A DNA stretch of 32,000 bases from Erysipelotrichaceae bacterium (GTDB lineage: Bacteria > Bacillota_I > Bacilli_A > Erysipelotrichales > Erysipelotrichaceae), in contig OY781039.1 of NCBI GenBank assembly GCA_963676105.1, positions 690,001-722,000 of the forward strand, written 5' to 3'. The position numbers and the translations under genes were made by a program. Under the pieces are notes generated by a model. The model did no database searches. It saw nothing but the letters and a program-made list of their open reading frames with translations, and had not been told where the DNA came from. Position 1 is the first letter of the stretch; each line of letters starts with the position of its first letter. Positions 1,784-14,774 of the stretch are shown here, piece after piece.

Positions 1784-2911
1784 TTAATGTGATTCTATTC
1801 TATTCTTACCCATGCTTTTAGCTTTATATAGACGACTATCTGCTAGTTCAATCAGTTCATCTCTTGTATGATTATCCAATATTGATAATCCACCTGAAAT
1901 GGTTAGTCGGATTTTATCTATTCTCAGATTCTCAACGGTCTCTCTTATTCTTTCGGAAACATTTAAAGCTTGATTAAGATTTGCGCCTGGAAAGATAACC
2001 ATAAACTCTTCACCACCATGGCGACCTAATATATCTTGTTCTCTGACATTTTCACGAATACATGTTGATACCGCTAATAAAACTTCATCTCCTTTTAAAT
2101 GTCCGTATTTATCATTGATTATTTTAAAATCATCAATATCAATAATCAATATAGCTAATGAGCTTTGTTTAAGAATGGCATCTTTAATGGCATGGTCTAA
2201 GAGTCTAAAAATATGATCATGATTAAAAAATTGTGTCATTGAATCTTTAACCGCAATATCTTGAAGGAGTTCATTTTCTTGTTTATGTTTTTGTACATTG
2301 AGCCACAACAACATACGATGGCGATTATTCACAACCCCAAAATACCAAGCGACACTTATGAAGAAAAGTAAATTTATAATTTCATAGACAATTGTGAACA
2401 TATTAAAGTCATGCAAGATTAAAATACTTAAAATATTCAATCCTAAGCTAATCAAACCAATCACAAGCATGGTAAGTGCTGGAACATGAAGAAGTATTGC
2501 GGTGTAAGCATACACGATAATGTAGATATGTATATTAACCATATCGTTATAACGAAACGCATTAAAAGCGCTCGTAGCATATAAAAAAGATAAGATTACT
2601 AGCATTTGTACAATAAATTGCCATCTAAAAGAAACCTTATAATTAATCCGTTTCCAATAATAAATAGTGACGGTATAAAAACTTGCAAAACAAACAAATA
2701 CAATTAAACTTGCTTTCAATAAACCAGTTATACCTGGAAAATTTAGAGCGATGAGGGTTGAAATGATTGAAAAAATCAAAATTCTAAATATCTGATTTAA
2801 ATTATGAATCGTATACTCACGTAAAAAAGTATCCAAATATGGAAGAATTTCTTTATGTTCATTTGTTGGATATAAAAAATCATTAAAGTTCTTTTTAAGA
2901 TTTTCCCACAT
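1784..2911 (-). CDS. Membrane-anchored diguanylate cyclase, paralog of 582-1706
   Basis: 375-aa ORF with GGEEF (RHGGEEFMVIFP), I-site REQD and DIDDFKIINDKYGH. Architecture matches the neighbour, with roughly half the residues identical across the GGDEF domain by eye. Confidence 0.85.
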   Translation of the reverse strand: MWENLKKNFNDFLYPTNEHKEILPYLDTFLREYTIHNLNQIFRILIFSIISTLIALNFPGITGLLKASLIVFVCFASFYTVTIYYWKRINYKVSFRWQFIVQMLVILSFLYATSAFNAFRYNDMVNIHIYIIVYAYTAILLHVPALTMLVIGLISLGLNILSILILHDFNMFTIVYEIINLLFFISVAWYFGVVNNRHRMLLWLNVQKHKQENELLQDIAVKDSMTQFFNHDHIFRLLDHAIKDAILKQSSLAILIIDIDDFKIINDKYGHLKGDEVLLAVSTCIRENVREQDILGRHGGEEFMVIFPGANLNQALNVSERIRETVENLRIDKIRLTISGGLSILDNHTRDELIELADSRLYKAKSMGKNRIESH

Positions 2912-4217: not shown

Positions 4218-5948
4218 TTATCGTTTCTCCTTGACTTCACTTGTTAATAATATCACAAGTTCTTCCACTGTCAAGGTTTCACTATCCTTTTGTCCATATT
4301 TACGTACATTTACGGTGTTGGCTTCAAGTTCTCCATCACCAACAACGAGTTGATATGGAATTTTCTTCATTTGAGCTTCACGTAAACGATAACCTAGTTT
4401 TTCATTACGATCATCAAGTGATACACGTAAGCCTAAGGCTTGAAGTTTATTGAGTAAGTCATTCGCATATTCATTATGGAATTCTGCATTAACCGGTAAA
4501 ATCACCACTTGTTTAGGTGCTAACCAAAGTGGGAAAGCGCCTGCATAGTGTTCTATTAAAATACCGATGAATCTCTCAACTGAACCAAAGACTACACGAT
4601 GTAACATAACCGGTCTTTGTTTAGATCCATCAGCCGCAATATAGGTCATATCGAAGCGTTCAGGTAAGTTCATATCAAGTTGGATGGTTCCACATTGCCA
4701 CTCACGACCAATACTATCTTTTAGATGGAAGTCTAATTTAGGACCATAGAATGCGCCATCCCCAGGGTTAATCTTAATATCTTTACCAGCCGCTTTAACA
4801 GCTTGTTCTAAGGCTTTTTCTGATTCATCCCAGACTTCAATAGAACCAATGAATTTCTCTTCAGGACGTGTGGATAGTTCAATTGTGTAAGATAAACCAA
4901 AGAGTTTATAGAAACGGTCGAACAAATCAATCATACGAACGATTTCACCCTCAATTTGATCTTGTGTCATATAAAGATGGGCATCATCTTGTGTAAAGGC
5001 ACGGACTCTAAATAAACCATTTAAAGCACCAGATGCTTCATGACGATGAACTAAACCGAGTTCTCCAACACGTAGTGGAAAGTCTTTATACGAGTGTAAA
5101 TTGTGTTTATACGCTAAGATACCCCCTGGACAGTTCATTGGTTTAATCGCAAAGTGACGATCATCAATTTCTGATGTATACATGTTTTCTCTGTAGTTAT
5201 ACCAGTGACCTGAAATTTCCCATAACTCTTGAGATAACATCGTTGGTGTTTTAATGAATTGATAGCCTTCTTTCGCATGTTCTTCATACCAGAAGTTCTC
5301 TAAGATATTACGAATAATCATCCCATCAGGTAGCCAGAATGGGAAACCTGGACCATACTCACTCATCATAAAGAGATCTAACTCTTTACCCAATTTCTTA
5401 TGATCACGCTTTTTCGCTTCTTCTAACATATACATGTGTTCTTCTAAAGCTTCAGGTGAATCAAAACAAACACCATAGACACGCTGAAGCATCTTATTAG
5501 AGGCATCACCCTTCCAATATGCACCAGAGACTTTTAAAAGTTTAAAGTTTTTAAGCTCTTTAGTCGTATTCGCATGAGGTCCACGACATAGATCTTCAAA
5601 CTCATCTTGTTTATAAGTACTAATGACTACGCCATCCATATTTGAAATCAAATCAATTTTATACGGATCATCCTTAAACTTCTCTAAAGCTTCTTCTTTA
5701 GATAGTTCAGTTCTTGTGATACGTTTATCACTTTTTGCGATCTTCTTCATTTCTTTTTCAATCGCAGGTAAATCTGCTTCTGATAAAACCGTATCGCCTA
5801 AGTCCATATCATAGTAAAAACCTTCAGTAATAACCGGTCCTACCCAAAATTGTGCCTGTGGATACAAACGTTTAACCGCTTGAGCCATCATGTGTGCACA
5901 TGAGTGATTAATAACGGATAGTCTTTCATCTTCTTTAATGTTAATCAT
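4218..5948 (-). CDS. thrS: Threonine--tRNA ligase (short form without the N-terminal TGS domain)
   Basis: 576-aa ORF. Editing-domain motifs HSCAH and CRGPH lie near the N-terminus. The class II catalytic core (FRVRAFTQDDAH, HRHEASGALNGL) and a C-terminal anticodon-binding domain are present. It is preceded by a Thr-specific T-box leader and AGGAGG. Confidence 0.95.
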   Translation of the reverse strand: MINIKEDERLSVINHSCAHMMAQAVKRLYPQAQFWVGPVITEGFYYDMDLGDTVLSEADLPAIEKEMKKIAKSDKRITRTELSKEEALEKFKDDPYKIDLISNMDGVVISTYKQDEFEDLCRGPHANTTKELKNFKLLKVSGAYWKGDASNKMLQRVYGVCFDSPEALEEHMYMLEEAKKRDHKKLGKELDLFMMSEYGPGFPFWLPDGMIIRNILENFWYEEHAKEGYQFIKTPTMLSQELWEISGHWYNYRENMYTSEIDDRHFAIKPMNCPGGILAYKHNLHSYKDFPLRVGELGLVHRHEASGALNGLFRVRAFTQDDAHLYMTQDQIEGEIVRMIDLFDRFYKLFGLSYTIELSTRPEEKFIGSIEVWDESEKALEQAVKAAGKDIKINPGDGAFYGPKLDFHLKDSIGREWQCGTIQLDMNLPERFDMTYIAADGSKQRPVMLHRVVFGSVERFIGILIEHYAGAFPLWLAPKQVVILPVNAEFHNEYANDLLNKLQALGLRVSLDDRNEKLGYRLREAQMKKIPYQLVVGDGELEANTVNVRKYGQKDSETLTVEELVILLTSEVKEKR

Positions 5949-5969: not shown

Positions 5970-6006
5970 AATATAAAAGCACTCCATCCAATAAGGACGA
6001 AGTGCT
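5970..6006 (-). terminator. Intrinsic terminator of the T-box leader (the alternative to the antiterminator)
   Basis: Minus strand AGCACTTCGTCC-TTATT-GGATGGAGTGCT forms a 12-bp stem (including G-U pairs), followed by TTTTATATTT. The 5' arm overlaps the T-box sequence as expected. Confidence 0.8.
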
Positions 6007-6165
6007 CGTGGTACCACCTTAATTTATAAGTTATAAAATATAACTTACCTCTAATCCTTTAACGCAAGATTCACGCAAGTTTTCTAACTTGACCACTTAA
6101 GTGGTAGTCTTATTTATTTAAACGAAAGTTTGCACCAAACACTTTCTCTCTAAAGATTAAATAAA
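5970..6165 (-). promoter_or_regulatory. T-box riboswitch leader (threonine specifier) controlling thrS
   Basis: The minus strand carries the AG-bulge AGAGAG (about 6150-6145) and distal-loop GGTGCAA (about 6136-6130). The specifier region is AAGACTACCACTT, with Thr codons ACT-ACC-ACT at 6108-6100. The T-box sequence AAATTAAGGTGGTACCACG lies at 6025-6007, followed by a terminator hairpin. Confidence 0.88.
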
Positions 6166-6198
6166 TAAACCATGTCTTAAGTATGGGTTACTGAAGAT

Positions 6199-6232: not shown

Positions 6233-6610
6233 TTAATCTTCATTGACTGTCAAAGATTTTACGATTGCTTTCCCTCTATTAACATACGCTGTTAAAGCTT
6301 CAATCATATAGGTGTTCAAACTTACATTTTCCTCAGAGGCTTGTTCAGATATTTCTTTATGAAGTGTTTTAGATAAACGTAATACGAGTTTCCCACTAAA
6401 GTCTTTAAGTTCAATATCTGGGGTTGGTATGCTTATTCCTTCTTTAACCATATACTCGATCGCGATAGAAATAGCTTCATTCAGATCAGTCACTGCTTCA
6501 TCAATTGTATGTCCACCTCCTGATACATATTTAAAAGCTGGATATTTCGCTACAAAAATCAATCCTTCTGATGTTTCTTCTTGAGTAATAATTAATTTAT
6601 AGGGATACAT
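6233..6610 (-). CDS. hicB: HicB-family antitoxin (N-terminal HicB fold plus a C-terminal ribbon-helix-helix DNA-binding domain)
   Basis: 125 aa. The N-terminus YKLIITQEETSEGLIFVAKYPAFKYVSGGGHTIDEAVTDLNEAI is typical of HicB. The C-terminus FSGKLVLRLSKTLHKEISEQASEENVSLNTYMIEAL is typical of RHH. It overlaps the upstream hicA by 14 nt. Confidence 0.75.
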   Translation of the reverse strand: MYPYKLIITQEETSEGLIFVAKYPAFKYVSGGGHTIDEAVTDLNEAISIAIEYMVKEGISIPTPDIELKDFSGKLVLRLSKTLHKEISEQASEENVSLNTYMIEALTAYVNRGKAIVKSLTVNED

Positions 6611-7579: not shown

Positions 7580-10417
7580 TTATTTCCCTTTCTTAACCCT
7601 AAGTTTCTTAGGGATCAAAACTTTATCAAATAATACAATTAATGGTGGCAGTACTAAGAATGTTGAGAGTAGTGCCAGTGAAATATTCACCACTGTCATA
7701 ATGCCGAAATCTTGTAAGATAACAAAATCTGACATCAGTAATACTGCAAATCCACCTACGGTTGTAAGCCCTGAAGCTAAGACAGCTTTACCAATCTTTT
7801 GAATGGATACAATCATTGCTTCAGTTTTATCAAAACCATGATTTCTTTCTTCTAAATAACGCTCCATCACCATAACCGTCATTTCAGTACCCATACCTAA
7901 GATGAGTGCACCTAAGGTTGCGGTAATTGGGGTAAAGGCAATGTCGTAGGTATACATGAAGAGTGATGAGAAACCAATAATAATCGATACTGGAATAATT
8001 GGAACTATCGCTTTAAAGAGATTGCGATAGATAAGTAGTAGAGCTGTAAAGACTAAAGCTAAACCATAGAGGGTCATTTCAATACGACCTGATGTTAAAC
8101 CATCAACCATGACAACATCTAAGACTGATTTACCCGTAAGCGTGTATTCAAATGGTGCACCAGCCAGTAAATTATCAACACTTTCAACCAAGTGACTTAA
8201 ATCATCTATGGCTAAGTGTTCGATAGAAATCAAGATCACAGCTTTATTATCTTCAGAGACAAATAACTTACGTTGATTCTCTGGTAAATCTAAAATCTGT
8301 TCTTGAATGTCATCAGCATATAAATCAATTTCACTATCCATGTTTTTCAAAATCGATGTAATGGATTGAACATCTGTAATTTCATCTGGATAACGATTTT
8401 CTAAAAGTGTTTCAATTTCATCTAAGTAAATAAGATTAGAAGTTTCTAGAATGTCATCATCTTCGATATAGACCGCGATTTGATCTGTACTTGCGAGTGC
8501 ATCACGAACCGTTCTAATATCTTCAAGCTCTGCAAGATCTTGAGGCATAAATGTTTCAATGTCTGTCTCAACCGCAATCTTAGAATCAACTGAGAATCCA
8601 TAAGCCGCGATGGCTAATACAATAATCAGAATAATGGCACCAAGTTTAAGCGTCCATTTTGTCCAAAATGCGAAGAAGCTCTCTAATAAACCTTGCTTAA
8701 CTTCAGTGGATTGTGTTTGCACTTTCGTTTCATGGTGCTGACCAGCTCTTAAAATAGGCATTAAGATAAACATGGCCGCAAATAAACTTATCACAACCCC
8801 TATCGTCAACATCTTTCCAAAGTCTTGGATCATTGGAACAGGTGACGCATACAAGGAAATGAAACCAAGCATGGTCGCAATAACTGCCACCGCGACTGCT
8901 GGGGCAATATTGATCATCGCTTCTTTCACATTTTGGTTTTCTTGGTAACGGTTATGAAATTGAATTGAGTAATCAATCCCTAAACCTATGAGTATTGGGA
9001 AGACTGCCATCGAAACCATCGTGACCGGTACATCTAACCAAGACATAAAGCCTAAAGTCGCCATAACCGCGATAAATATGGTCAAAAGTGAGAGTAATCT
9101 CCATTTAACTTTAAATACAAGTAATAAAATCAATAACATCAGCCCAACAGCCATGCCAACCATAGCCTGCATACTGCTTTTCATCTCTGTTTTTAAGGCT
9201 GAATCTAAGATTGATTTACCTGAAACAGTGATATCAATATTCTCTGTATTTAAATCTAATAATAAATTAGAAATATCTTGTGAAACTTTATCTTTAACAG
9301 AATCACTTAGATTGCCTTCAAGTTTAACCACCATCATCATTTGATGATCTGACACAAGAATGTCATCGAAAAGTGTTCTAAGTTCTGCATCTTCATAAAG
9401 TAGTAAGTCTAATTCTTCTTGGCTTGCAGGAATTCTGGCTTCCATCATCCCTGATTTATCATAGAACATCCCTAAGGCTTCTGAGATATCGTTGAGTTTT
9501 CCACCCATTTCGATAAAGCCATCAGCCATATTCATTAAATCTTCTTTACTTAAGGCTGATGATAAATCACCCTTCATTTCATTTAACTTTGTGCTCAAGT
9601 TATCTTCTATGGTGCCTAAAGCTGTAGCGGTATTAGAGGTTCCCTCTTGTATACCTTGTGTATTGGTTCCCATGGTATCTAAACCAACGGATGTGGTATT
9701 TAGATTGGTCGCAATCGTATTAAGTTGAACCTTTAGAACATTTGGACTGTTATCAGGTAATAAATCTGGTTGAGAAGCTGCTAAAGTTGCGAGTTGACTA
9801 GACACTTCAGCAATCCCATCTGATGTTTGATATAAAGCAAGTTCTAATGTATGAACACCATCAGTTAAAGCTGTTTGTCCTGTTTGAAGTTCTATAAATT
9901 TAGCGGATATATCTTCGAGTTCACTTAACTCAGCTAACATTTCTTCAGGATCTTTAATATCTTTCGCTTTAAGTTCTTCACCTAAGTCAATCATCGTTGA
10001 TCCCATAGACTCTAAACCATCAGAGAGTTCAGCAACTGTTTCAATAATCATCTCTGCTTGTTTATCCGTCATTTCATGAAGTAATGATGTGAGTGATAAA
10101 ACAGAGAAGACATGATCCGTTTCTTCAATACGTGTTTGTACATCGTATAAATCATTTAAGAAAACAGGATCTAGAATAGGATCTAAGTTCTCTGCTTCAA
10201 ATAAAACAAGAACTGCATCTCCCCCAAAGGTATCTTCCATCTCGACATTGGCAATATAGACCGGGTTGTCGGTTTGAACCAGCGTGTCATTTCCGGTTGC
10301 TAAGCGAAGTTGAGTCGCACCTGCAACCATCGCTACAACGATTAATAATGTAATAAATAGTGTTTTAAAAGGTCTTCTTTCAACTAAAGAAGCCATTAAG
10401 TTGAATAAGTTTTTCAT
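7580..10417 (-). CDS. MMPL/RND-superfamily transporter with a large extracytoplasmic insert
   Basis: 945 aa with an N-terminal TM and two approximately 6-TM bundles (aa ~410-560 and ~790-930), as in MMPL/YdfJ-type exporters. Sits immediately downstream of a TetR regulator. Confidence 0.8.
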   Translation of the reverse strand: MKNLFNLMASLVERRPFKTLFITLLIVVAMVAGATQLRLATGNDTLVQTDNPVYIANVEMEDTFGGDAVLVLFEAENLDPILDPVFLNDLYDVQTRIEETDHVFSVLSLTSLLHEMTDKQAEMIIETVAELSDGLESMGSTMIDLGEELKAKDIKDPEEMLAELSELEDISAKFIELQTGQTALTDGVHTLELALYQTSDGIAEVSSQLATLAASQPDLLPDNSPNVLKVQLNTIATNLNTTSVGLDTMGTNTQGIQEGTSNTATALGTIEDNLSTKLNEMKGDLSSALSKEDLMNMADGFIEMGGKLNDISEALGMFYDKSGMMEARIPASQEELDLLLYEDAELRTLFDDILVSDHQMMMVVKLEGNLSDSVKDKVSQDISNLLLDLNTENIDITVSGKSILDSALKTEMKSSMQAMVGMAVGLMLLILLLVFKVKWRLLSLLTIFIAVMATLGFMSWLDVPVTMVSMAVFPILIGLGIDYSIQFHNRYQENQNVKEAMINIAPAVAVAVIATMLGFISLYASPVPMIQDFGKMLTIGVVISLFAAMFILMPILRAGQHHETKVQTQSTEVKQGLLESFFAFWTKWTLKLGAIILIIVLAIAAYGFSVDSKIAVETDIETFMPQDLAELEDIRTVRDALASTDQIAVYIEDDDILETSNLIYLDEIETLLENRYPDEITDVQSITSILKNMDSEIDLYADDIQEQILDLPENQRKLFVSEDNKAVILISIEHLAIDDLSHLVESVDNLLAGAPFEYTLTGKSVLDVVMVDGLTSGRIEMTLYGLALVFTALLLIYRNLFKAIVPIIPVSIIIGFSSLFMYTYDIAFTPITATLGALILGMGTEMTVMVMERYLEERNHGFDKTEAMIVSIQKIGKAVLASGLTTVGGFAVLLMSDFVILQDFGIMTVVNISLALLSTFLVLPPLIVLFDKVLIPKKLRVKKGK

Positions 10418-10420
10418 AAT

Positions 10421-10945
10421 CTAAGCCAACAACTCTCCTACAACATAATCTGTATATTCTTCAATTCTTTTTAGTTTGTTATCAGGATGATAAAGGAACG
10501 ATAGAAACATCCCCATTAAGATACGTTGTTTAAGCTCAATCTTTTCTTTAACTCCGTATGAGAATAAAACTTCTTGCAGGGACTTAACCATCTCTTCAAT
10601 GACATTTTGATACTCATTCAACAACATTTGTTCATTTAGAATGAGCTTAATCACTAAGTGATGTTTGTTGATGTATTGAACACGCTGAATAAGCGCTGCT
10701 CTTAAAGCATCTTTAAACTTTTCTTGATCAACATCTAACTTCAACATATTTAATGATTCTTCAATCACTGGTTTAACACTCAACATAAAGATTTCATCTT
10801 TAGATTTAAAATATCTAAACAATGTCACTTCTGAAATATCTGCAACACGAGCAATCTCAGCGGTTGTGGTTCCCTTATAACCTTTTTCGATAAAGACGTT
10901 TAAGGCTGCTTGAAGCAGTTCTTTTTCTCTTTGTTCTTTGTTCAT
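10421..10945 (-). CDS. TetR/AcrR-family transcriptional regulator
   Basis: HTH region TTTAEIARVADISEVTLFRYFKSKDEIF. I chose the start at ATG 10945 (MNKEQREKELLQAAL...) because GAGGTGAAT precedes it. The longer ORF-track start at 11020 would run through the promoter and operator. Confidence 0.85.
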   Translation of the reverse strand: MNKEQREKELLQAALNVFIEKGYKGTTTAEIARVADISEVTLFRYFKSKDEIFMLSVKPVIEESLNMLKLDVDQEKFKDALRAALIQRVQYINKHHLVIKLILNEQMLLNEYQNVIEEMVKSLQEVLFSYGVKEKIELKQRILMGMFLSFLYHPDNKLKRIEEYTDYVVGELLA

Positions 10946-11005: not shown

Positions 11006-11036
11006 ACAAAAAAAAGACATTTTTTCAAATGTCTTA
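11006..11036 (-). terminator. Rho-independent terminator after the beta-helix lipoprotein gene
   Basis: Minus strand AAGACATTT-GAAA-AAATGTCTT followed by TTTTTTTTG, beginning 7 nt after the stop at 11043. Confidence 0.7.
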
Positions 11037-11042
11037 AATTAC

Positions 11043-12821
11043 TTAGTTGCGACTTGGTCGTGTTCCACCAGGTTGAGAAGCACTTGAACCGAAACTTGTG
11101 ATTGTTTGAGAGATTGAGAATGTTCCAATACTTGTATAATCACTAAGTGTTCCAGAAGTAGAAATATTGTTTTCATAAGTCGCATCTGTACTTCCACCCG
11201 AAACTAGTATGTAATCACCATTGACTAGATTAGTTCCACTATAGACGATTGAGTTAAAAGCTTTAAGTGCTTGTACAGAAACAATGATATTTCCACTTTC
11301 ATCAATAATACTTACTGTTTCTCCTGCAGATACACCTGAGAAATTAATAAGGACTGAGTTTTGAGTTGATGAGGATGCTTGTTCAGCCATACCAGATGAT
11401 CCAACCGCTAAGAGTGTTCCCCCATTAAGGGTAAATTGACCATTATAATCAATCGCACCATTACCATTATTGGTTGGTCCAAAGACAATCACTGTACCAT
11501 CATTCATGATCAGTGATCCATTAGAATCTAGACCATCACCTGATGCATCCATGACTAGTGTTCCACCATTGATAGTTACACTTACACCTGACTCAGCACT
11601 CATACTTTGAGAACCAGAACCAGAAGATCCATTAATCCCATCATCGAATGATGTTAAGTCAAGATACCCATCGTTTAAAGTAATGACACTCGCTTCAATC
11701 GCTTCATAGGATTCTTCAATCGTAATATCACCACCATTGATGGTAATACTATTATCAGCATGAAGTCCATCATCACCAGATGATAATGTAATAGTTCCAG
11801 CATCTATGGTTAAAGCACCATTGGTATGAATGGAATCATCTTTAGCTGTGATAATGATGTCACCTGCATCAATGATAATTTCATTAACCGCCTTTAAACC
11901 TTTACCAGATTCATCCCCTGACATCAGTGTACCTGAGGTAATGACATATGAACCTGAATCAATTTCTAAGATGTTTTCAGCTTGAATACCATCTAAACCT
12001 GCATTGATTGTGATATTAGAATCAGCGATCAATACATTCCCGACATCAGTACTTTCAGCATTAGAGGATACAATTCCATCACCTTCAGCTGTGATATTTA
12101 AAGTAACACCTTGTGCCCATACCACATCTTTACCTTTGATCGCATCATTCGCCGCATCAATGGTGATATTGACATCAATGAGTCTTAAATCGTCTTTAGA
12201 ATAAATCCCATGATTGTAGTTAGCACTAATGACTAATTCACCAGTACCGTTAAAGGTTAAATCAGATGTAGAGAAGATAGCCGCATTGGGTTCTTCTTCA
12301 GCTTGCACATAAGCACTTCCATCTTTAATCACATTTGATGTGCCTTCAGCTAAAGTGATAATGACTTTATCACCACCTGTGATCACAATTGCAGATCCAT
12401 TGGTATTAGTAATAGATGCATTATCTAAAACGATATGAACTTCTTCACCCTCAGTTGCGTTTACGATGATTTGTCCATCACTTAGGGTACCTGTAATAAT
12501 ATAATCCCCTTCAGTATCAATGGTAATCACGGATCCTGAGATAGACACATTATTCCCATCAGTAGAAGCAGATGTGCCATCTAAGGTAATGATTTCAGCA
12601 TCATAGACTTCAGTTCTTAAATCTTCTTGGGTAAAATCAAAGCTTAAATCTGCTGTACTTGTTGAATCAGAATCATTTGTTAGATCAACAACAGTTGATG
12701 TTGTGTCATCTGATGTTGTTGAATCAGTGTTGCTGGTATCTGTAGTATCATCTGTACTACATCCAGCTAGTAGTAAGGATAAGAGTAGTCCACTACTCAT
12801 TAATAAATTTTTTGTTTTCAT
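11043..12821 (-). CDS. Surface lipoprotein with a Cthe_2159-type (PF14262-like) parallel beta-helix carbohydrate/polyanion-binding domain
   Basis: I chose the start at ATG 12821 (MKTKNLLMSSGLLLSLLLAGC, lipobox LAGC), 4 nt after the upstream stop. An S/T/D-rich linker is followed by repeated turns such as GTITLSSGDDGLHADNSITINGGDITI, ITAKDDSIHTNGALTIDAG and SGDGLDSNGSLIMNDGTVIV, typical of that family. Confidence 0.72.
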   Translation of the reverse strand: MKTKNLLMSSGLLLSLLLAGCSTDDTTDTSNTDSTTSDDTTSTVVDLTNDSDSTSTADLSFDFTQEDLRTEVYDAEIITLDGTSASTDGNNVSISGSVITIDTEGDYIITGTLSDGQIIVNATEGEEVHIVLDNASITNTNGSAIVITGGDKVIITLAEGTSNVIKDGSAYVQAEEEPNAAIFSTSDLTFNGTGELVISANYNHGIYSKDDLRLIDVNITIDAANDAIKGKDVVWAQGVTLNITAEGDGIVSSNAESTDVGNVLIADSNITINAGLDGIQAENILEIDSGSYVITSGTLMSGDESGKGLKAVNEIIIDAGDIIITAKDDSIHTNGALTIDAGTITLSSGDDGLHADNSITINGGDITIEESYEAIEASVITLNDGYLDLTSFDDGINGSSGSGSQSMSAESGVSVTINGGTLVMDASGDGLDSNGSLIMNDGTVIVFGPTNNGNGAIDYNGQFTLNGGTLLAVGSSGMAEQASSSTQNSVLINFSGVSAGETVSIIDESGNIIVSVQALKAFNSIVYSGTNLVNGDYILVSGGSTDATYENNISTSGTLSDYTSIGTFSISQTITSFGSSASQPGGTRPSRN

Positions 12822-12825
12822 AAGT

Positions 12826-13506
12826 TTAACCTGCATAGTCTCCATTGTAGCTAACGAGTTGAATATTGGATACACCTTGAATGTCCGCAATCGCATTCAC
12901 AAAGCCTGTATCTTGATCTTTTAACTGACACTCGTAAATCAGTTCATGTTCATATTTTGATTGTGTTTTAGATTTAACACGCAATTTTTTAGTACGACTC
13001 TCTAATATTCTAAACGCATCTTCTTCAGCACTCGCATTCTCAAGTCTAACAATCGCAATATAGGCTGTATTTTCACCAGCTTGTTTACCTTTAAAGACTA
13101 AGAGTAAGCCAATAAACATGGATCCAAAGATTCCTAAAGGAATCAGTCCTGCCCCCATAACAATACCACCGCCAATGGCCCAAAATAGAAAGACAAGATC
13201 TAAGGGGTCTTTAATTGCGGTTCTAAAACGAACAATCGATAAAGCCCCAACCATCCCTAAGGATAAGACAACATTAGAGGTAACCGCTAAGATAACAAAT
13301 GTAGTGAGTAATGTTAGTAGAATTAAACTCAAATTAAAACTCTCTGAATACATCACTCCTAAGAAGGTACGTTTATAAATTAAATAGATAAACATGCCTA
13401 ATAGAAATGAAGCAGATAAGGCAATCGCATAATCCACGAATGAGACTGTTGTCATATTTTCTAAAAACGAATTCTTGAAGACATCACTAAATGACGTTAA
13501 TAACAT
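12826..13506 (-). CDS. DUF4956-family membrane protein (4 TM plus a C-terminal soluble domain)
   Basis: 226 aa. The signature-like stretch LSIVRFRTAIKDPLDLVFLFWAIGGGIVMGAG matches my memory of DUF4956. AGGAGAG SD; 14-nt gap to the upstream VTC gene. Confidence 0.75.
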   Translation of the reverse strand: MLLTSFSDVFKNSFLENMTTVSFVDYAIALSASFLLGMFIYLIYKRTFLGVMYSESFNLSLILLTLLTTFVILAVTSNVVLSLGMVGALSIVRFRTAIKDPLDLVFLFWAIGGGIVMGAGLIPLGIFGSMFIGLLLVFKGKQAGENTAYIAIVRLENASAEEDAFRILESRTKKLRVKSKTQSKYEHELIYECQLKDQDTGFVNAIADIQGVSNIQLVSYNGDYAG

Positions 13507-13520
13507 ATTTTTTCTCTCCT

Positions 13521-14192
13521 TTAGATTTGAGACATACGTCCCAATACATATTTTGAATGTGCGATCCGCGCTGGATCAAAATGATTGATGGAAGCTTGTA
13601 TAAAATCAGGAATAAATCGATCATATTTTATTTCCAATAGATTTTGTACGCCCCATTTCGGTAAACAAACCAAATCCTTATCAAAGAACATTGATGTATT
13701 AATTGAGGTTTGAATCTTTCGATCAATGGTGACCCTTACATTTCCACTAGGAAACTGAAAGGCTTCACGCTCATAATCAATAATAATCATGGGTCTAAGT
13801 TGATTCATCTTCACATCACGCATAAACTCTTGAGCCAATTCATAGGTATTACCTTCCAAGAAACCGACATTTCCATCTAGAATCATTTGAACTTCATCTT
13901 TAGTTAAGCGTAAATGTTCTTTTCTTCCTTTATGGTAATTCTTTGACTTGCGTTCAAGTAAGAGGAAGTCAGCATTGAAGTTATACATCCGGATTCGATA
14001 CTTACTACGCTTTGCCAATCCCATTTGATTTTGTTGAAGTGATCGATCATAAATATCATCGAAATAAACTGATCTTACATGATACATTCCATTAATCGCA
14101 TGCTTATCATGTTTTAATACTTGTCGAAGCACATGGGATAAACGCAAGTTATCATCATGTTTGATTTCGTATTTAATTTCGTTACGATACAT
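13521..14192 (-). CDS. VTC-domain protein (polyphosphate-polymerase-like triphosphate tunnel metalloenzyme fold)
   Basis: 223 aa starting MYRNEIKYEIK. Alternating charged beta-strand motifs KYRIRMY, LLLERKSK, VRVTIDRK and LLEIKYD resemble the RxRxY and ERK strands of the Vtc4 catalytic tunnel (recalled from memory, not aligned). Confidence 0.75.
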   Translation of the reverse strand: MYRNEIKYEIKHDDNLRLSHVLRQVLKHDKHAINGMYHVRSVYFDDIYDRSLQQNQMGLAKRSKYRIRMYNFNADFLLLERKSKNYHKGRKEHLRLTKDEVQMILDGNVGFLEGNTYELAQEFMRDVKMNQLRPMIIIDYEREAFQFPSGNVRVTIDRKIQTSINTSMFFDKDLVCLPKWGVQNLLEIKYDRFIPDFIQASINHFDPARIAHSKYVLGRMSQI

Positions 14193-14360
14193 CAGCCCGT
14201 CCGCCTTTCTTGATTACAGTGTTAAGTTTAGTTTACAAATGTGTCTTAAATGTGGCATTAAAGGCACAAAAAAAAGGATTGTAAAAGAACATATTCCTAG
14301 ACTTTTTGGAAGTAATCTGTGTATAATAAAAACCAACCTATAAGAAAGGTAGGTAACTAC

Positions 14361-14774
14361 ATGAAAACAATACCTCAACCCTTAGTTAAGCTTAATCAAA
14401 GCTTTGTCGCAGTATCAGCTCTTATATATTTAATCAGTCAAAACGGAGTATTTCTACTTCTTCCATTACTTAACTGTGCATCCTCTCTTTTCTTAAAAAA
14501 GAATGTGATTATGATAATTGGAAAGAAATTCTTAAATAAACCATTAAGTGAGTATCATCAAGAAGACGGTGCAGATCAACGCTTTAATAACTTACTTGCA
14601 ATGTCCATGTTTTTGGTCGCCTTTATCAGTCACCAATTCAACTGGACCTTTAGTGCTTACTTATTTACATCAATGGTACTAATCGCATCAACCGTTGCGT
14701 TAATGGGTTTCTGTGTTGGCTGTTTTATTCGCTTTCAATACAGAATGTATAAATATCGTAGAGCTAATACATAA
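14361..14774 (+). CDS. DUF4395-family small membrane protein
   Basis: I chose the start at ATG 14361 (MKTIPQPLVKLNQSF...), which is preceded by AAAGGTAGG. It has hydrophobic helices and a C-terminal GFCVGCFIRFQY motif (GFCxGC) as recalled for DUF4395. Confidence 0.55.
   Translation: MKTIPQPLVKLNQSFVAVSALIYLISQNGVFLLLPLLNCASSLFLKKNVIMIIGKKFLNKPLSEYHQEDGADQRFNNLLAMSMFLVAFISHQFNWTFSAYLFTSMVLIASTVALMGFCVGCFIRFQYRMYKYRRANT

Follow-up and report, generated by a model that had tools for sequence, protein, structure and literature searches.

A VTC/DUF4956 gene pair with a Cthe_2159-type lipoprotein in an Erysipelotrichaceae genome: a candidate envelope module for polyphosphate

The gene unit and its three products

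Three genes lie one behind the other on the minus strand of the window, the 32,000-nucleotide stretch of Erysipelotrichaceae DNA analysed here. In order, they encode a VTC-domain protein (gene 1), a DUF4956 membrane protein (gene 2) and a Cthe_2159 lipoprotein (gene 3). The unit and its associated features, in window coordinates, are as follows.

14237..14254, minus strand: direct repeat CACATTT-N4-CACATTT (period 11 bp), lying some 45-60 nt before gene 1 begins
13521..14192, minus strand: gene 1, VTC-domain triphosphate-tunnel enzyme and candidate polyphosphate polymerase (223 aa, Pfam VTC PF09359)
12826..13506, minus strand: gene 2, DUF4956 membrane protein, the predicted partner of gene 1 (226 aa, Pfam PF16316)
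11043..12821, minus strand: gene 3, Cthe_2159-type lipoprotein with signal peptide, tether, long parallel beta-helix and C-terminal domain (592 aa, PF14262)
12759..12821, minus strand: predicted lipoprotein signal peptide of gene 3, read from the sequence as MKTKNLLMSSGLLLSLLLAGC, with lipobox LAGC and lipidated Cys21
12612..12758, minus strand: low-complexity Ser/Thr/Asp-rich tether of gene 3, residues 22-70 (49 residues)
11008..11035, minus strand: candidate intrinsic terminator, a 9-bp A/U-rich hairpin followed by U8, beginning 8 nt past the gene 3 stop

The gaps are exactly 14 nt between genes 1 and 2 and 4 nt between genes 2 and 3, and the three genes form an operon-like unit. A preliminary description of this DNA had reported three co-directional genes with these gaps, and its coordinates, strand and spacing are confirmed. 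It had also suggested searches with three Pfam families (PF09359, PF16316 and PF14262); once run, these placed all three proteins above the curated cut-offs. The strong terminator that it saw after gene 3 holds up in part. The hairpin and the U8 tract are present, but the fold energy is moderate (-9 kcal/mol, z -1.9 versus shuffles) and the hairpin was not reported by a consensus terminator scan. A moderate rather than strong terminator is therefore plausible from the sequence.

The CACATTT-N4-CACATTT repeat has a single match within the window and may be where a response regulator of the OmpR/PhoB type binds. Two syntenic relatives (loci L090 and L001) keep most of the repeat region and of the TTAACACTGTAA block downstream of it. 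An OmpR-type two-component system lies directly upstream of the module in many related genomes, and two-component or sigma/anti-sigma regulators adjoin many of the modules at the surveyed loci described below. In the window itself, the neighbours (pfk, pyk, glucokinase, M29 peptidase, thrS) have housekeeping functions and do not point clearly to any pathway. The ORFs around the trio include no CotH or pel-family match, and none of the PADLOC anti-phage defence models matched the three proteins.

The product of gene 1 is a triphosphate-tunnel enzyme of the Vtc4 type, cytoplasmic and with its polymerase-type catalytic residues intact. It matches Pfam VTC over residues 3-219 (E 1.8e-34, 119.8 bits, cut-off 23), and a sequence scan detected no hydrophobic segment, which bears out its earlier description as soluble. 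Its AlphaFold model (pLDDT 93.4) is a closed beta-tunnel of eight strands. When this model was compared with the PDB using Foldseek, the top 13 matches were all yeast VTC subunits. Vtc4 was the best match (3G3R, TM 0.81, E 2.7e-13) and Vtc2 was also strong, while other tunnel enzymes scored lower (TM 0.5-0.6). Profile alignment to the Vtc4 structure 3G3Q pairs K7, R66, R68, E80, K82 and Y140 of gene 1 with K200, R264, R266, E279, K281 and Y359 of Vtc4, and R142, R153, E187, K189, S213 and K214 with R361, R373, E426, K428, S457 and K458, the last being the catalytic lysine of Vtc4 (PMC4641920). All 12 of these residues are invariant in 41 homologues. The intact Vtc4-type tunnel proposed earlier is thus upheld by the family match, the model and every catalytic residue checked, and the conservation of its Lys/Arg/Glu residues, which the same description had wanted examined, is borne out. 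Gene 1 probably makes polyphosphate, an activity that is well supported by its sequence and predicted fold.

Gene 2 is an obligate and extremely conserved membrane partner of gene 1: its homologues are 57-69% identical, versus 30-45% for the matching VTC homologues. It matches Pfam DUF4956 (E 1.2e-8, 35.3 bits, cut-off 30.6), and more than 8000 of its homologues carry PF16316 as a precomputed annotation; JGI labels homologues 'YhiD'. The structural model, of moderate confidence (pLDDT 69.5), places helices at residues 23-48, 55-74, 78-97, 101-118 and 122-144, followed by a beta-alpha-beta-beta-alpha-beta domain at residues 148-219. About five membrane helices are therefore more likely than the four described previously, with the N-terminus predicted outside and the C-terminus inside. 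The DUF4956 assignment and the soluble C-terminal domain, which is ACT-like in the model, both stand. Fold searches match this domain to the C-terminal domain of MgtC (2LQJ) and to ACT domains. Membership of the MgtC/SapB family was considered and rejected: the likeness is confined to architecture and C-terminal fold, the NCBIfam MgtC/SapB match is weak (PRK09977, E 1.2e-5, 25.1 bits, cut-off 214) and Pfam MgtC gives no match even at E 10. Nor is gene 2, with its MgtC-like layout, related to the yeast VTC channel; DUF4956 is its sole Pfam domain even at E 10. The conserved motif R93-F-R95-x-x-x-K99 lies at the predicted cytoplasmic face, and the membrane helices contain no basic residues. The channel role earlier given to gene 2 finds no support beyond analogy with yeast. 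By that analogy, the product of gene 1 might cross the membrane via gene 2, a step that is possible but doubtful.

Gene 3 is, as predicted from its sequence, a very acidic beta-helix protein that is anchored by lipid and exposed on the outer side of the membrane. It matches Pfam Cthe_2159 in two stretches (E 1.6e-81, 273.9 bits, cut-off 25.8). Its start is ambiguous, giving 592 aa (the MKTKNLL start), 600 aa (the length of P0241, a 100%-identical database protein) or 617 aa; of these, the 592-aa form fits the family alignment best. The signal peptide has a K-rich n-region and a hydrophobic core followed by the lipobox (MKTKNLLMSSGLLLSLLL-AGC), and a lipobox Cys at the Cys21 position is found in all 11 VTC-linked Cthe_2159 proteins examined and is nearly invariant in the family alignment. 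The tether consists of Ser/Thr at 24 of its 49 positions and Asp/Glu at 13. Beyond it, the solved structure of Cthe_2159 (4PEU/4PHB) aligns with residues 80-294 (E 7e-30), and the family alignment reveals an invariant Asp/His/Lys/Glu ladder at residues 305-459. Lipobox, tether and beta-helix agree with the preliminary description.

The further suggestion that the tethered beta-helix captures an exported polyanion fares less well. The lipid-tethered position outside the membrane fits, but the protein has 83 Asp/Glu versus 15 Lys/Arg (pI about 4) and would repel polyphosphate unless metal-bridged. Members of the Cthe_2159 family are reported to bind cellulose and pectin/polygalacturonic acid, the latter a polyanion; binding of cellulose or acidic polysaccharide and of calcium is known from published work on the Clostridium thermocellum protein. 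The conserved motifs of gene 3 also occur in P0300, a family member without VTC linkage, and may serve a polysaccharide function. Action of the beta-helix on polyphosphate appears unlikely.

Distribution across genomes and earlier reports

Gene neighbourhoods were surveyed in 80 species-level genomes, with loci fetched by VTC homology alone. Since these loci are the closest relatives of the gene 1 VTC protein and all come from Bacillota, the survey proportions are not a census. A DUF4956 gene directly adjoins VTC in 80/80 loci (median gap 21 nt), an arrangement far beyond chance, and the two genes form an obligate pair. The third gene varies: a CotH kinase is found at 62 of the 80 loci, a Cthe_2159 lipoprotein at 8 and no third partner at 10, 4 of which are truncated contigs. 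CotH and Cthe_2159 were not found together at any of the 80 loci. The window therefore holds a minority variant of a widespread module, and the alternation indicates a unit made of VTC, DUF4956 and an exchangeable, membrane-tethered extracytoplasmic protein.

Searching from the Cthe_2159 side gave a similar picture. Of four distant homologues, three immediately follow VTC-DUF4956, including one in Chloroflexota, and for at least 23 of the best 120 Cthe_2159 matches the contig could be paired by unique size with a top VTC or DUF4956 match. The arrangement recurs in Erysipelotrichales-like, Lactobacillales, Clostridia, Bacillales and Chloroflexota genomes, and the association persists across VTC/DUF4956 lineages that are merely 25-30% identical. 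The co-occurrence check proposed in the preliminary description is thus positive for VTC with DUF4956 and for the recurrence of Cthe_2159 in distant lineages, although the usual third partner is CotH. The listed CotH partners have a hydrophobic anchor at the N-terminus, and the third component looks, by its sequence features, extracytoplasmic and membrane-tethered throughout. This constant placement is the main argument for use of the cytoplasmic enzyme's product outside the membrane. The three genes almost certainly constitute a conserved functional module.

Part of this module has been described before. CotH, polyphosphate-polymerase and DUF4956 genes (with DUF4832) were reported in 2020 as accessory genes of Gram-positive pel loci (PMC7112168). 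In Streptococcus intermedius (SIR_1592-1594), knock-outs of the DUF4956 and CotH genes reduce Pel-dependent aggregation, an extracellular-matrix phenotype (PMC12345266); the S. intermedius preprint authors suggested that polyphosphate may stay cytoplasmic. The earlier impression that no VTC/DUF4956 pair had been characterised therefore agrees, as to biochemistry, with the literature searched but overlooks the cluster and its knock-out phenotypes. The searchable literature yielded no polyphosphate biochemistry for the VTC/DUF4956/CotH cluster, no biochemical data on any bacterial VTC protein and no report of a Cthe_2159 variant. It has also been stated in print that the VTC/DUF4956/CotH trio is not found outside pel loci; contrary to this, the trio occurs here in many different neighbourhoods, at survey loci that were not screened for pel genes specifically.

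A possible route for polyphosphate and its alternatives

The trio may be a three-part cell-envelope module for the synthesis, export and surface use of polyphosphate, a serious possibility that falls a little short of probable. The observation made in the preliminary description is confirmed and its interpretation partly supported; from the surrounding evidence we infer export through DUF4956 and polyphosphate use or binding by the beta-helix. In the proposed sequence of events, gene 1 would dock on gene 2 on the inner side of the membrane, where it would build polyphosphate from ATP. The chain would be received or regulated by two elements of gene 2, its R93-F-R95-x-x-x-K99 motif and its ACT-like domain, and the polymer or its phosphoryl groups would arrive at the outer face. 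There, the tethered partner would bind, process or use the product; by the beta-helix route, Ca2+/Mg2+ would be bridged by the invariant Asp ladder of gene 3.

Chance neighbourhood or recent insertion, without any functional link, is the least credible alternative. The housekeeping surroundings and the ten loci lacking a third partner could be read in this way, but four of those ten are truncated contigs, and the invariable VTC/DUF4956 adjacency and the repetition of the Cthe_2159 arrangement from Erysipelotrichales-like to Chloroflexota genomes effectively refute it. A different concern is that gene 1 is not a polymerase, and instead hydrolyses triphosphate or polyphosphate or makes a small phosphorylated signal that gene 2 senses or transduces at the membrane. 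Residue E5, in an R-x-E-x-K motif, is an invariant Glu across the bacterial family where, by sequence position, Vtc4 has Thr198 and AtTTM3 has Glu4, and it partly restores the ancestral E-x-E-x-K motif. A Glu at this position helps to build the second metal site of hydrolytic tunnel enzymes, and AtTTM3, whose tunnel centre is like that of Vtc4, acts as a tripolyphosphatase (PMC4641920). Hydrolysis or another tunnel-enzyme activity is thus still conceivable for gene 1, and the strong fold match to Vtc2 is to an inactive paralogue. However, the remaining acidic-patch positions carry basic residues, as they do in Vtc4 (R3, K91 and K189, at three of the four places where, by sequence position, hydrolytic tunnel enzymes are acidic), both lysines required for polymerase activity (K200 and K458 in Vtc4) are invariant, no hydrolase or cyclase resembles gene 1 as closely in sequence and fold as Vtc4 does, and Pfam assigns gene 1 to VTC rather than CYTH. 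A non-polymerase role is accordingly improbable.

The strongest competing explanation keeps the polyphosphate made by gene 1 in the cytoplasm. Gene 2 would then serve as an anchor or regulator resembling MgtC, with an ACT-like domain that senses some metabolite and takes the role of yeast SPX, and gene 3 or CotH would be merely co-regulated, belonging to the same envelope or stress regulon and acting on polysaccharide or protein. The resemblance of gene 2 to MgtC, with its ACT-like domain, fits, as MgtC-type proteins are known as regulators rather than channels and published descriptions have MgtC regulating ATP synthase and phosphate signalling. Helices free of basic residues, the cellulose and pectin binding reported for Cthe_2159 proteins, the suggestion of the S. 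intermedius authors and the regulators beside many modules point the same way. Yet this explanation does not account for a third gene that is consistently extracytoplasmic and membrane-tethered, for tight packing (a 4-nt gap here) across lineages 25-30% identical, or for the much stronger conservation of gene 2, a mere regulator in this view, relative to its enzyme. On balance, it is somewhat unlikely.

The envelope reading can be extended further. There is no ATP outside the membrane, and VTC/DUF4956 could be a bacterial polyphosphate synthase-translocase, analogous but not homologous to yeast VTC, that feeds enzymes there by delivering phosphoanhydride-bond energy or phosphoryl groups. CotH kinases, in most lineages, would use polyphosphate as donor, whereas Cthe_2159 lipoproteins, as here, would capture or process Ca-polyphosphate on the wall. 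This extension is speculative and, in our estimate, has a low probability. If true, it would provide a second, PPK-independent bacterial route to polyphosphate and a mechanism for extracytoplasmic phosphorylation.

Comparison with known systems

Like PPK1/PPK2, gene 1 would give polyphosphate from a nucleotide triphosphate; the PPK folds and families are unrelated, however, and lack dedicated membrane and surface protein partners. The resemblance to yeast VTC (3G3R, 7YTJ, 8I6V) is closer, comprising the tunnel fold (TM 0.81), the same catalytic Lys/Arg/Glu/Tyr/Ser residues and, as for Vtc4, a cytoplasmic enzyme paired with a membrane protein. In contrast to yeast VTC, the trio has neither SPX nor a fused or separate DUF202-type three-helix VTC membrane domain (Pfam, E 10), and the place of the Vtc1/2/3 membrane channel is taken by an unrelated MgtC-like protein with an ACT-like domain. 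Gene 1 is also a stand-alone enzyme of 223 aa with the extra invariant E5 in place of Thr198, and the third component of the module is extracytoplasmic.

As in MgtC/SapB/YhiD proteins, the multi-helix membrane domain of gene 2 is followed by a small ACT-like domain (M. tuberculosis MgtC 2LQJ, TM 0.61 on target), but gene 2 belongs to a separate curated family, DUF4956 (25 bits versus the MgtC/SapB cut-off of 214), and is always paired with a VTC enzyme. Gene 3 shares a lipoprotein-type signal and the region aligned at residues 80-294 with Clostridium thermocellum Cthe_2159 (4PEU/4PHB), a polysaccharide-lyase-like beta-helix. It differs from that protein in its roughly doubled length, in its genetic linkage to VTC-DUF4956 and in having its most conserved part, the 305-459 ladder, beyond the aligned region. 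The Gram-positive pel accessory cluster has the same VTC and DUF4956 core, a secreted or tethered third protein and a Bacillota host. At the present locus, pel genes are not seen nearby, there is no pelDEADAFG contiguity, and the third protein is a Cthe_2159 lipoprotein instead of CotH.

Layout and conservation of the three-gene module

It is nearly certain that the genes for the VTC-domain protein (gene 1), the DUF4956 membrane protein (gene 2) and the Cthe_2159-type lipoprotein (gene 3) form a module:

13521-14192, minus strand: gene 1, 223 aa
12826-13506, minus strand: gene 2, 226 aa
11043-12896, minus strand: gene 3, 617 aa counted from the first ATG
directly 3' of the gene 3 stop, minus strand: candidate terminator, an A/U-rich hairpin of 9 bp with a run of eight U behind it

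The preliminary description of three co-directional ORFs with gaps of 14 and 4 nt is confirmed with minor corrections. Genes 1 and 2 are separated by 14 nt, with an AGGAGAG ribosome-binding site ahead of gene 2, while gene 3 read from its MKTKNLL start (12821) encodes 592 aa and leaves a 4-nt gap after gene 2. Alignment with 21 family members favours this version; a 100%-identical database protein has 600 aa, so the copy there starts eight codons earlier. The family assignments also held, with all three proteins above the curated Pfam cut-offs (VTC 119.8 against 23 bits, DUF4956 35.3 against 30.6 and Cthe_2159 273.9 against 25.8). The terminator after gene 3 had been called strong; the hairpin and U-run are present, but it is plausibly a terminator of moderate strength only (-9 kcal/mol, z -1.9), and the consensus terminator scan did not report it. 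The sole hairpin reported near the trio, at 12783-12798 on the minus strand within the signal-peptide coding start of gene 3, has a weak stem and a poor T-run and is probably not functional, since the scan found two hairpins against 1.5 expected by chance.

To survey linkage, 80 species-representative loci were fetched by a VTC peptide pattern only, and their ORFs were labelled by profiles and checked with Pfam.

Gene arrangement at the 80 surveyed loci (core pair, VTC and DUF4956)
DUF4956 directly adjacent to VTC: 80/80
VTC-then-DUF4956 order: 79, median gap 21 nt
CotH kinase gene beside the core pair: 62/80
Cthe_2159 gene beside the core pair: 8/80
CotH and Cthe_2159 together: 0/80
Neither CotH nor Cthe_2159: 10/80, 4 of these on truncated contigs

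Each of the 62 CotH sequences labelled by profile (loci L003-L082) passes Pfam, which on its own added three further CotH genes. The linkage of VTC with DUF4956 is therefore conserved. The wider proposal that all three families belong together stood in part: Cthe_2159 does recur by the core pair, but CotH is a far commoner third partner.

Relatives are labelled Erysipelotrichaceae; an exact-sequence look-up of gene 1 itself matched no record. Look-ups of Pfam-annotated neighbourhoods agree with the survey. Of two syntenic relatives, the more distant, L001 (VTC 45% identical), keeps the trio between an M29 peptidase gene and thrS, and the closer, L090, keeps it together with a TetR/MMPL pair. 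Cthe_2159 lies upstream and divergent in Halalkalibacterium, with a two-component system in between. Anaerofustis and Pseudobutyrivibrio have CotH as partner, the latter within an exopolysaccharide locus. In a reverse search from Cthe_2159, three of four distant homologues fell directly after VTC-DUF4956; this order occurs in Tetragenococcus, a metagenome contig (L089) and Caldilineaceae (Chloroflexota). A dockerin-annotated homologue was not beside VTC-DUF4956. At least 23 of the best 120 Cthe_2159 matches lie on contigs whose unique length recurs among the top VTC or DUF4956 matches.

A distinct VTC/DUF4956 clade that pairs with Cthe_2159 was considered and rejected, as the core pair follows taxonomy. 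Cthe_2159-linked cores do not form one clade: within an order they are closest to the cores linked to CotH, and some are only 25-30% identical to the rest. The third partner has thus been swapped repeatedly on a constant core, which favours function over hitch-hiking.

A putative tunnel enzyme and its membrane partner

Gene 1 is a probable polyphosphate polymerase, as judged from its sequence and predicted structure. Searching PDB sequences with gene 1 alone gave too weak a match (E 0.059), so a profile was built from 41 homologues, which matched yeast Vtc4 at E 3.2e-10. The alignment pairs 13 Vtc4 positions with gene 1 (K200 with K7, R264 with R66, R266 with R68, E279 with E80, K281 with K82, K294 with K91, Y359 with Y140, R361 with R142, R373 with R153, E426 with E187, K428 with K189, S457 with S213, and K458, the catalytic lysine of Vtc4 (PMC4641920), with K214). 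All 13 are invariant across the 41 bacterial sequences, in agreement with the intact tunnel described earlier. The AlphaFold model (pLDDT 93.4) has VTC subunits as its best 13 matches among solved structures, the first being Vtc4 (3G3R, TM 0.81), against TM 0.36-0.6 for tripolyphosphatases, CyaB-type cyclases and thiamine triphosphatases. No hydrophobic segment was found in gene 1.

Hydrolytic tunnel enzymes carry an acidic patch (E2, E4, E90 and E171 in AtTTM3) that forms a second metal site, while the corresponding Vtc4 positions are basic and steer the growing chain away (PMC4641920). Matched by sequence position, R3, K91 and K189 of gene 1 are Vtc4-like, while the invariant E5 occupies the place of Thr198 in Vtc4. 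With R3 and E5, the bacterial motif reads R-x-E-x-K, intermediate between E-x-E-x-K, the ancestral form, and R-x-T-x-K, the form in Vtc4.

The VTC family is large, with 13,788 cluster representatives at E <=1e-3 and 8,157 at E <=1e-10 in the profile search. About 20 of the 150 best representatives are 365-529 aa long (P0412, P0424, P0443, P0448, P0483 and others), with a basic, low-complexity N-terminal extension of 140-300 residues rich in Arg, Lys and Pro. These extensions matched no Pfam domain and may be genuine tails that bind polyanions or may stem from faulty gene calling; they are not DUF4956, and a VTC-DUF4956 fusion was accordingly rejected in this Rosetta-stone test.

Gene 2 is far more conserved than its partner enzyme, which is unusual for an accessory subunit: its homologues are 57-69% identical among the matches listed, against 30-45% for gene 1 homologues past the closest relatives. 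Its invariant core reads ILAVTSxVVLSLGMVGALSIVRFRTA-K-P-D--FLFW. The model is of moderate quality (pLDDT 69.5) and places an N-terminal amphipathic helix before hydrophobic helices at 23-48, 55-74, 78-97, 101-118 and 122-144, so that five transmembrane segments are more likely than the four first counted. With the positive or cytoplasmic parts at K45/R46, R93/R95/K99 and the C-terminal domain and no charge in the other loops, we infer a five-helix, N-out, C-in topology. This would place the invariant R-F-R-T-A-I-K-D-P motif and an ACT-like domain on the side of gene 1. That domain (148-219) is well predicted as beta-alpha-beta-beta-alpha-beta; its matches are ACT domains and, from Mycobacterium tuberculosis MgtC, the C-terminal domain (2LQJ). 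Gene 2 is thus MgtC-like by layout, not an MgtC family member: the NCBIfam MgtC/SapB match is weak (25 bits against a cut-off of 214) and Pfam gave no MgtC match. Searches found no sequence match among solved structures and nothing that resembles the membrane domain of yeast VTC. The conserved polar residues of the helix interiors are Thr, Ser and Asn, none basic, and a channel role is possible by analogy.

The third protein and the regulatory context

The preliminary reading of gene 3 as a lipobox lipoprotein with a tether rich in Ser, Thr and Asp and a Cthe_2159 helix is upheld. Its N-terminus, MKTKNLLMSSGLLLSLLLAGC, is a lipoprotein signal with a lipobox and Cys21, its 49-residue tether holds 24 Ser/Thr and 13 Asp/Glu, and the Pfam match reaches 273.9 bits. 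Residues 80-294 align with the solved Cthe_2159 structure (E 7e-30), a protein that also starts with a lipoprotein-like signal and is about half as long. In a 22-member alignment, conservation peaks past this stretch, at residues 305-459 (window 11443-11909), in an invariant ladder of S305-x-K307-G-x-K310, D328-D329 with H332, D350-D351 with H354, E373 and E376, D393-D394-G-x-N397, D429, D432 and N434, and D458. This Asp-Asp/His/Lys/Glu ladder looks like a metal or catalytic site, presumably akin to the Ca2+ site and lysine base of PL9-type beta-helix lyases, and 'carbohydrate-binding' Cthe_2159-type proteins may therefore be enzymes. The ladder motifs are a feature of the Cthe_2159 family and not specific to VTC linkage, since P0300, another member, has them although no VTC gene lies near it.

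A lipobox is present in all 11 VTC-linked Cthe_2159 proteins examined. The CotH partners listed lack a lipobox; their N-terminus, with basic residues leading into a hydrophobic helix, resembles a signal anchor. The third component thus looks extracytoplasmic and membrane-tethered throughout. Anaerobic gut fungi, uniquely among fungi, acquired both Cthe_2159 and CotH domains (PMC6712302), the two alternating third partners of the bacterial module, although this may be coincidence.

At 37 of the 80 related loci (L006-L085), among them 7 of the 8 with Cthe_2159, the module has an OmpR-type response regulator and/or HisKA histidine kinase as its neighbour, in most cases immediately upstream and in the same orientation (for example, L009 5512-7772 and L035 4989-6559). 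A further 14 loci have, directly upstream, an ECF-like sigma factor together with RsgI-like anti-sigma proteins and RsgI_M-PepSY proteins. Such neighbours suggest a module responsive to an extracytoplasmic signal. The two-component systems cannot be given a specific name such as PhoPR, because every NCBIfam match to them scores far under its cut-off. Neither of these regulator types occurs in the window, where the surroundings of the trio are as follows:

14319-14774, plus strand: divergent DUF4395 membrane protein gene, upstream of gene 1 and followed by housekeeping genes; position conserved in L090
14237-14254, minus strand: exact direct repeat CACATTT-N4-CACATTT, gene 1 promoter region
7580-10945, minus strand, between gene 3 and thrS: TetR regulator and 945-aa MMPL/RND-type transporter
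6233-6610, minus strand: HicB-like antitoxin gene
5990-6193, minus strand: T-box leader matching Rfam RF00230 at 101 bits; the threonyl-tRNA synthetase gene (4218-5948) lies downstream of it
582-1706 and 1784-2911, minus strand: tandem paralogous GGDEF diguanylate-cyclase genes, ~375 aa each

The repeat occurs once in the window and is largely conserved in L090 and L001. With a period of 11 bp, as is usual for OmpR/PhoB-type sites, it may be bound by a response regulator, though no regulator gene is adjacent. The TetR/MMPL pair is absent at that place in L001 and looks like an insertion. No HicA partner was obvious among ORFs >=100 aa, the N-terminal halves of both GGDEF proteins matched no Pfam family, and PADLOC found no defence-system match for the trio.

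Proposed mechanism and relation to known systems

In the proposed mechanism, gene 1 would be a cytoplasmic Vtc4-type polymerase and gene 2 its obligate MgtC-like membrane partner, which would anchor, regulate and possibly conduct, while the third protein would be an exchangeable, tethered component that binds or uses the product on the outer face. Confidence differs between these parts: polyphosphate synthesis by gene 1 is moderately favoured, translocation of the product across the membrane is a tentative proposal, and action of the beta-helix on polyphosphate is rather unlikely. Gene 3 is strongly acidic (83 Asp/Glu against 15 Lys/Arg, pI ~4), making direct electrostatic capture of polyphosphate unlikely; holding it by metal bridging is conceivable. 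Polygalacturonic acid binding has been reported for the Cthe_2159 family.

Two main rivals have to be weighed. Gene 1 could be a tunnel enzyme with a non-polymerase activity, and the invariant E5 is the main caveat against reading it as a polymerase; the Vtc4-like residues at the other patch positions point towards polymerisation. Alternatively, synthesis could be purely cytoplasmic and MgtC-regulated, the surface protein being merely co-regulated. The MgtC-like layout of gene 2 is consistent with this, whereas the strongest argument for use of the gene 1/2 product on the outer face, though indirect, is the third partner itself: with a tethered protein outside and an enzyme that lacks an export signal, something from genes 1 and 2 would be used there. 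The invariable pairing with a conserved membrane protein points the same way.

The textbook route to bacterial polyphosphate is PPK1/PPK2. If a Vtc4-type polymerase works in bacteria, it would be a second, unrelated route, encoded here in small, self-contained genes. Use of its product outside the cell would bear on the fuelling of secreted CotH-type kinases, the origin of extracellular polyphosphate and the modification of Gram-positive matrices such as Pel.

Parts of this cluster have been noticed before. In streptococci, clostridia and bifidobacteria, cotH, 'poly-phosphate polymerase', DUF4956 and DUF4832 were described in 2020 as accessory genes contiguous with pel operons (PMC7112168). 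In Streptococcus intermedius, SIR_1593 was modelled as Vtc4-like and SIR_1592 as MgtC plus ACT, and deletion of SIR_1592 or SIR_1594 (CotH) lowers Pel and aggregation (PMC12345266 and preprint). The suggestion that no bacterial VTC/DUF4956 pair had been characterised thus needs qualifying for deletion phenotypes; it stands for enzyme activity, as the searchable literature, which omits most subscription journals, holds no report of activity for any bacterial VTC protein, nor of the Cthe_2159 variant. The three-gene arrangement was also stated to be absent outside pel loci (PMC12345266). This conflicts with the survey, in which the CotH/VTC/DUF4956 trio occurs in dozens of Bacillota genomes (L003, L004, L006-L085) in varied neighbourhoods, compared by their general make-up and not by pel gene content. 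The window trio is a novel version of this previously noticed cluster.

The review checked on VTC distribution covers eukaryotes only. The eukaryotic complex has SPX and a VTC membrane domain; the window module has neither and so is not a member of that complex, although by analogy it may work like it. In yeast, synthesis is coupled to translocation (PMC4641920), and the proposed outer-face use would follow the same logic.
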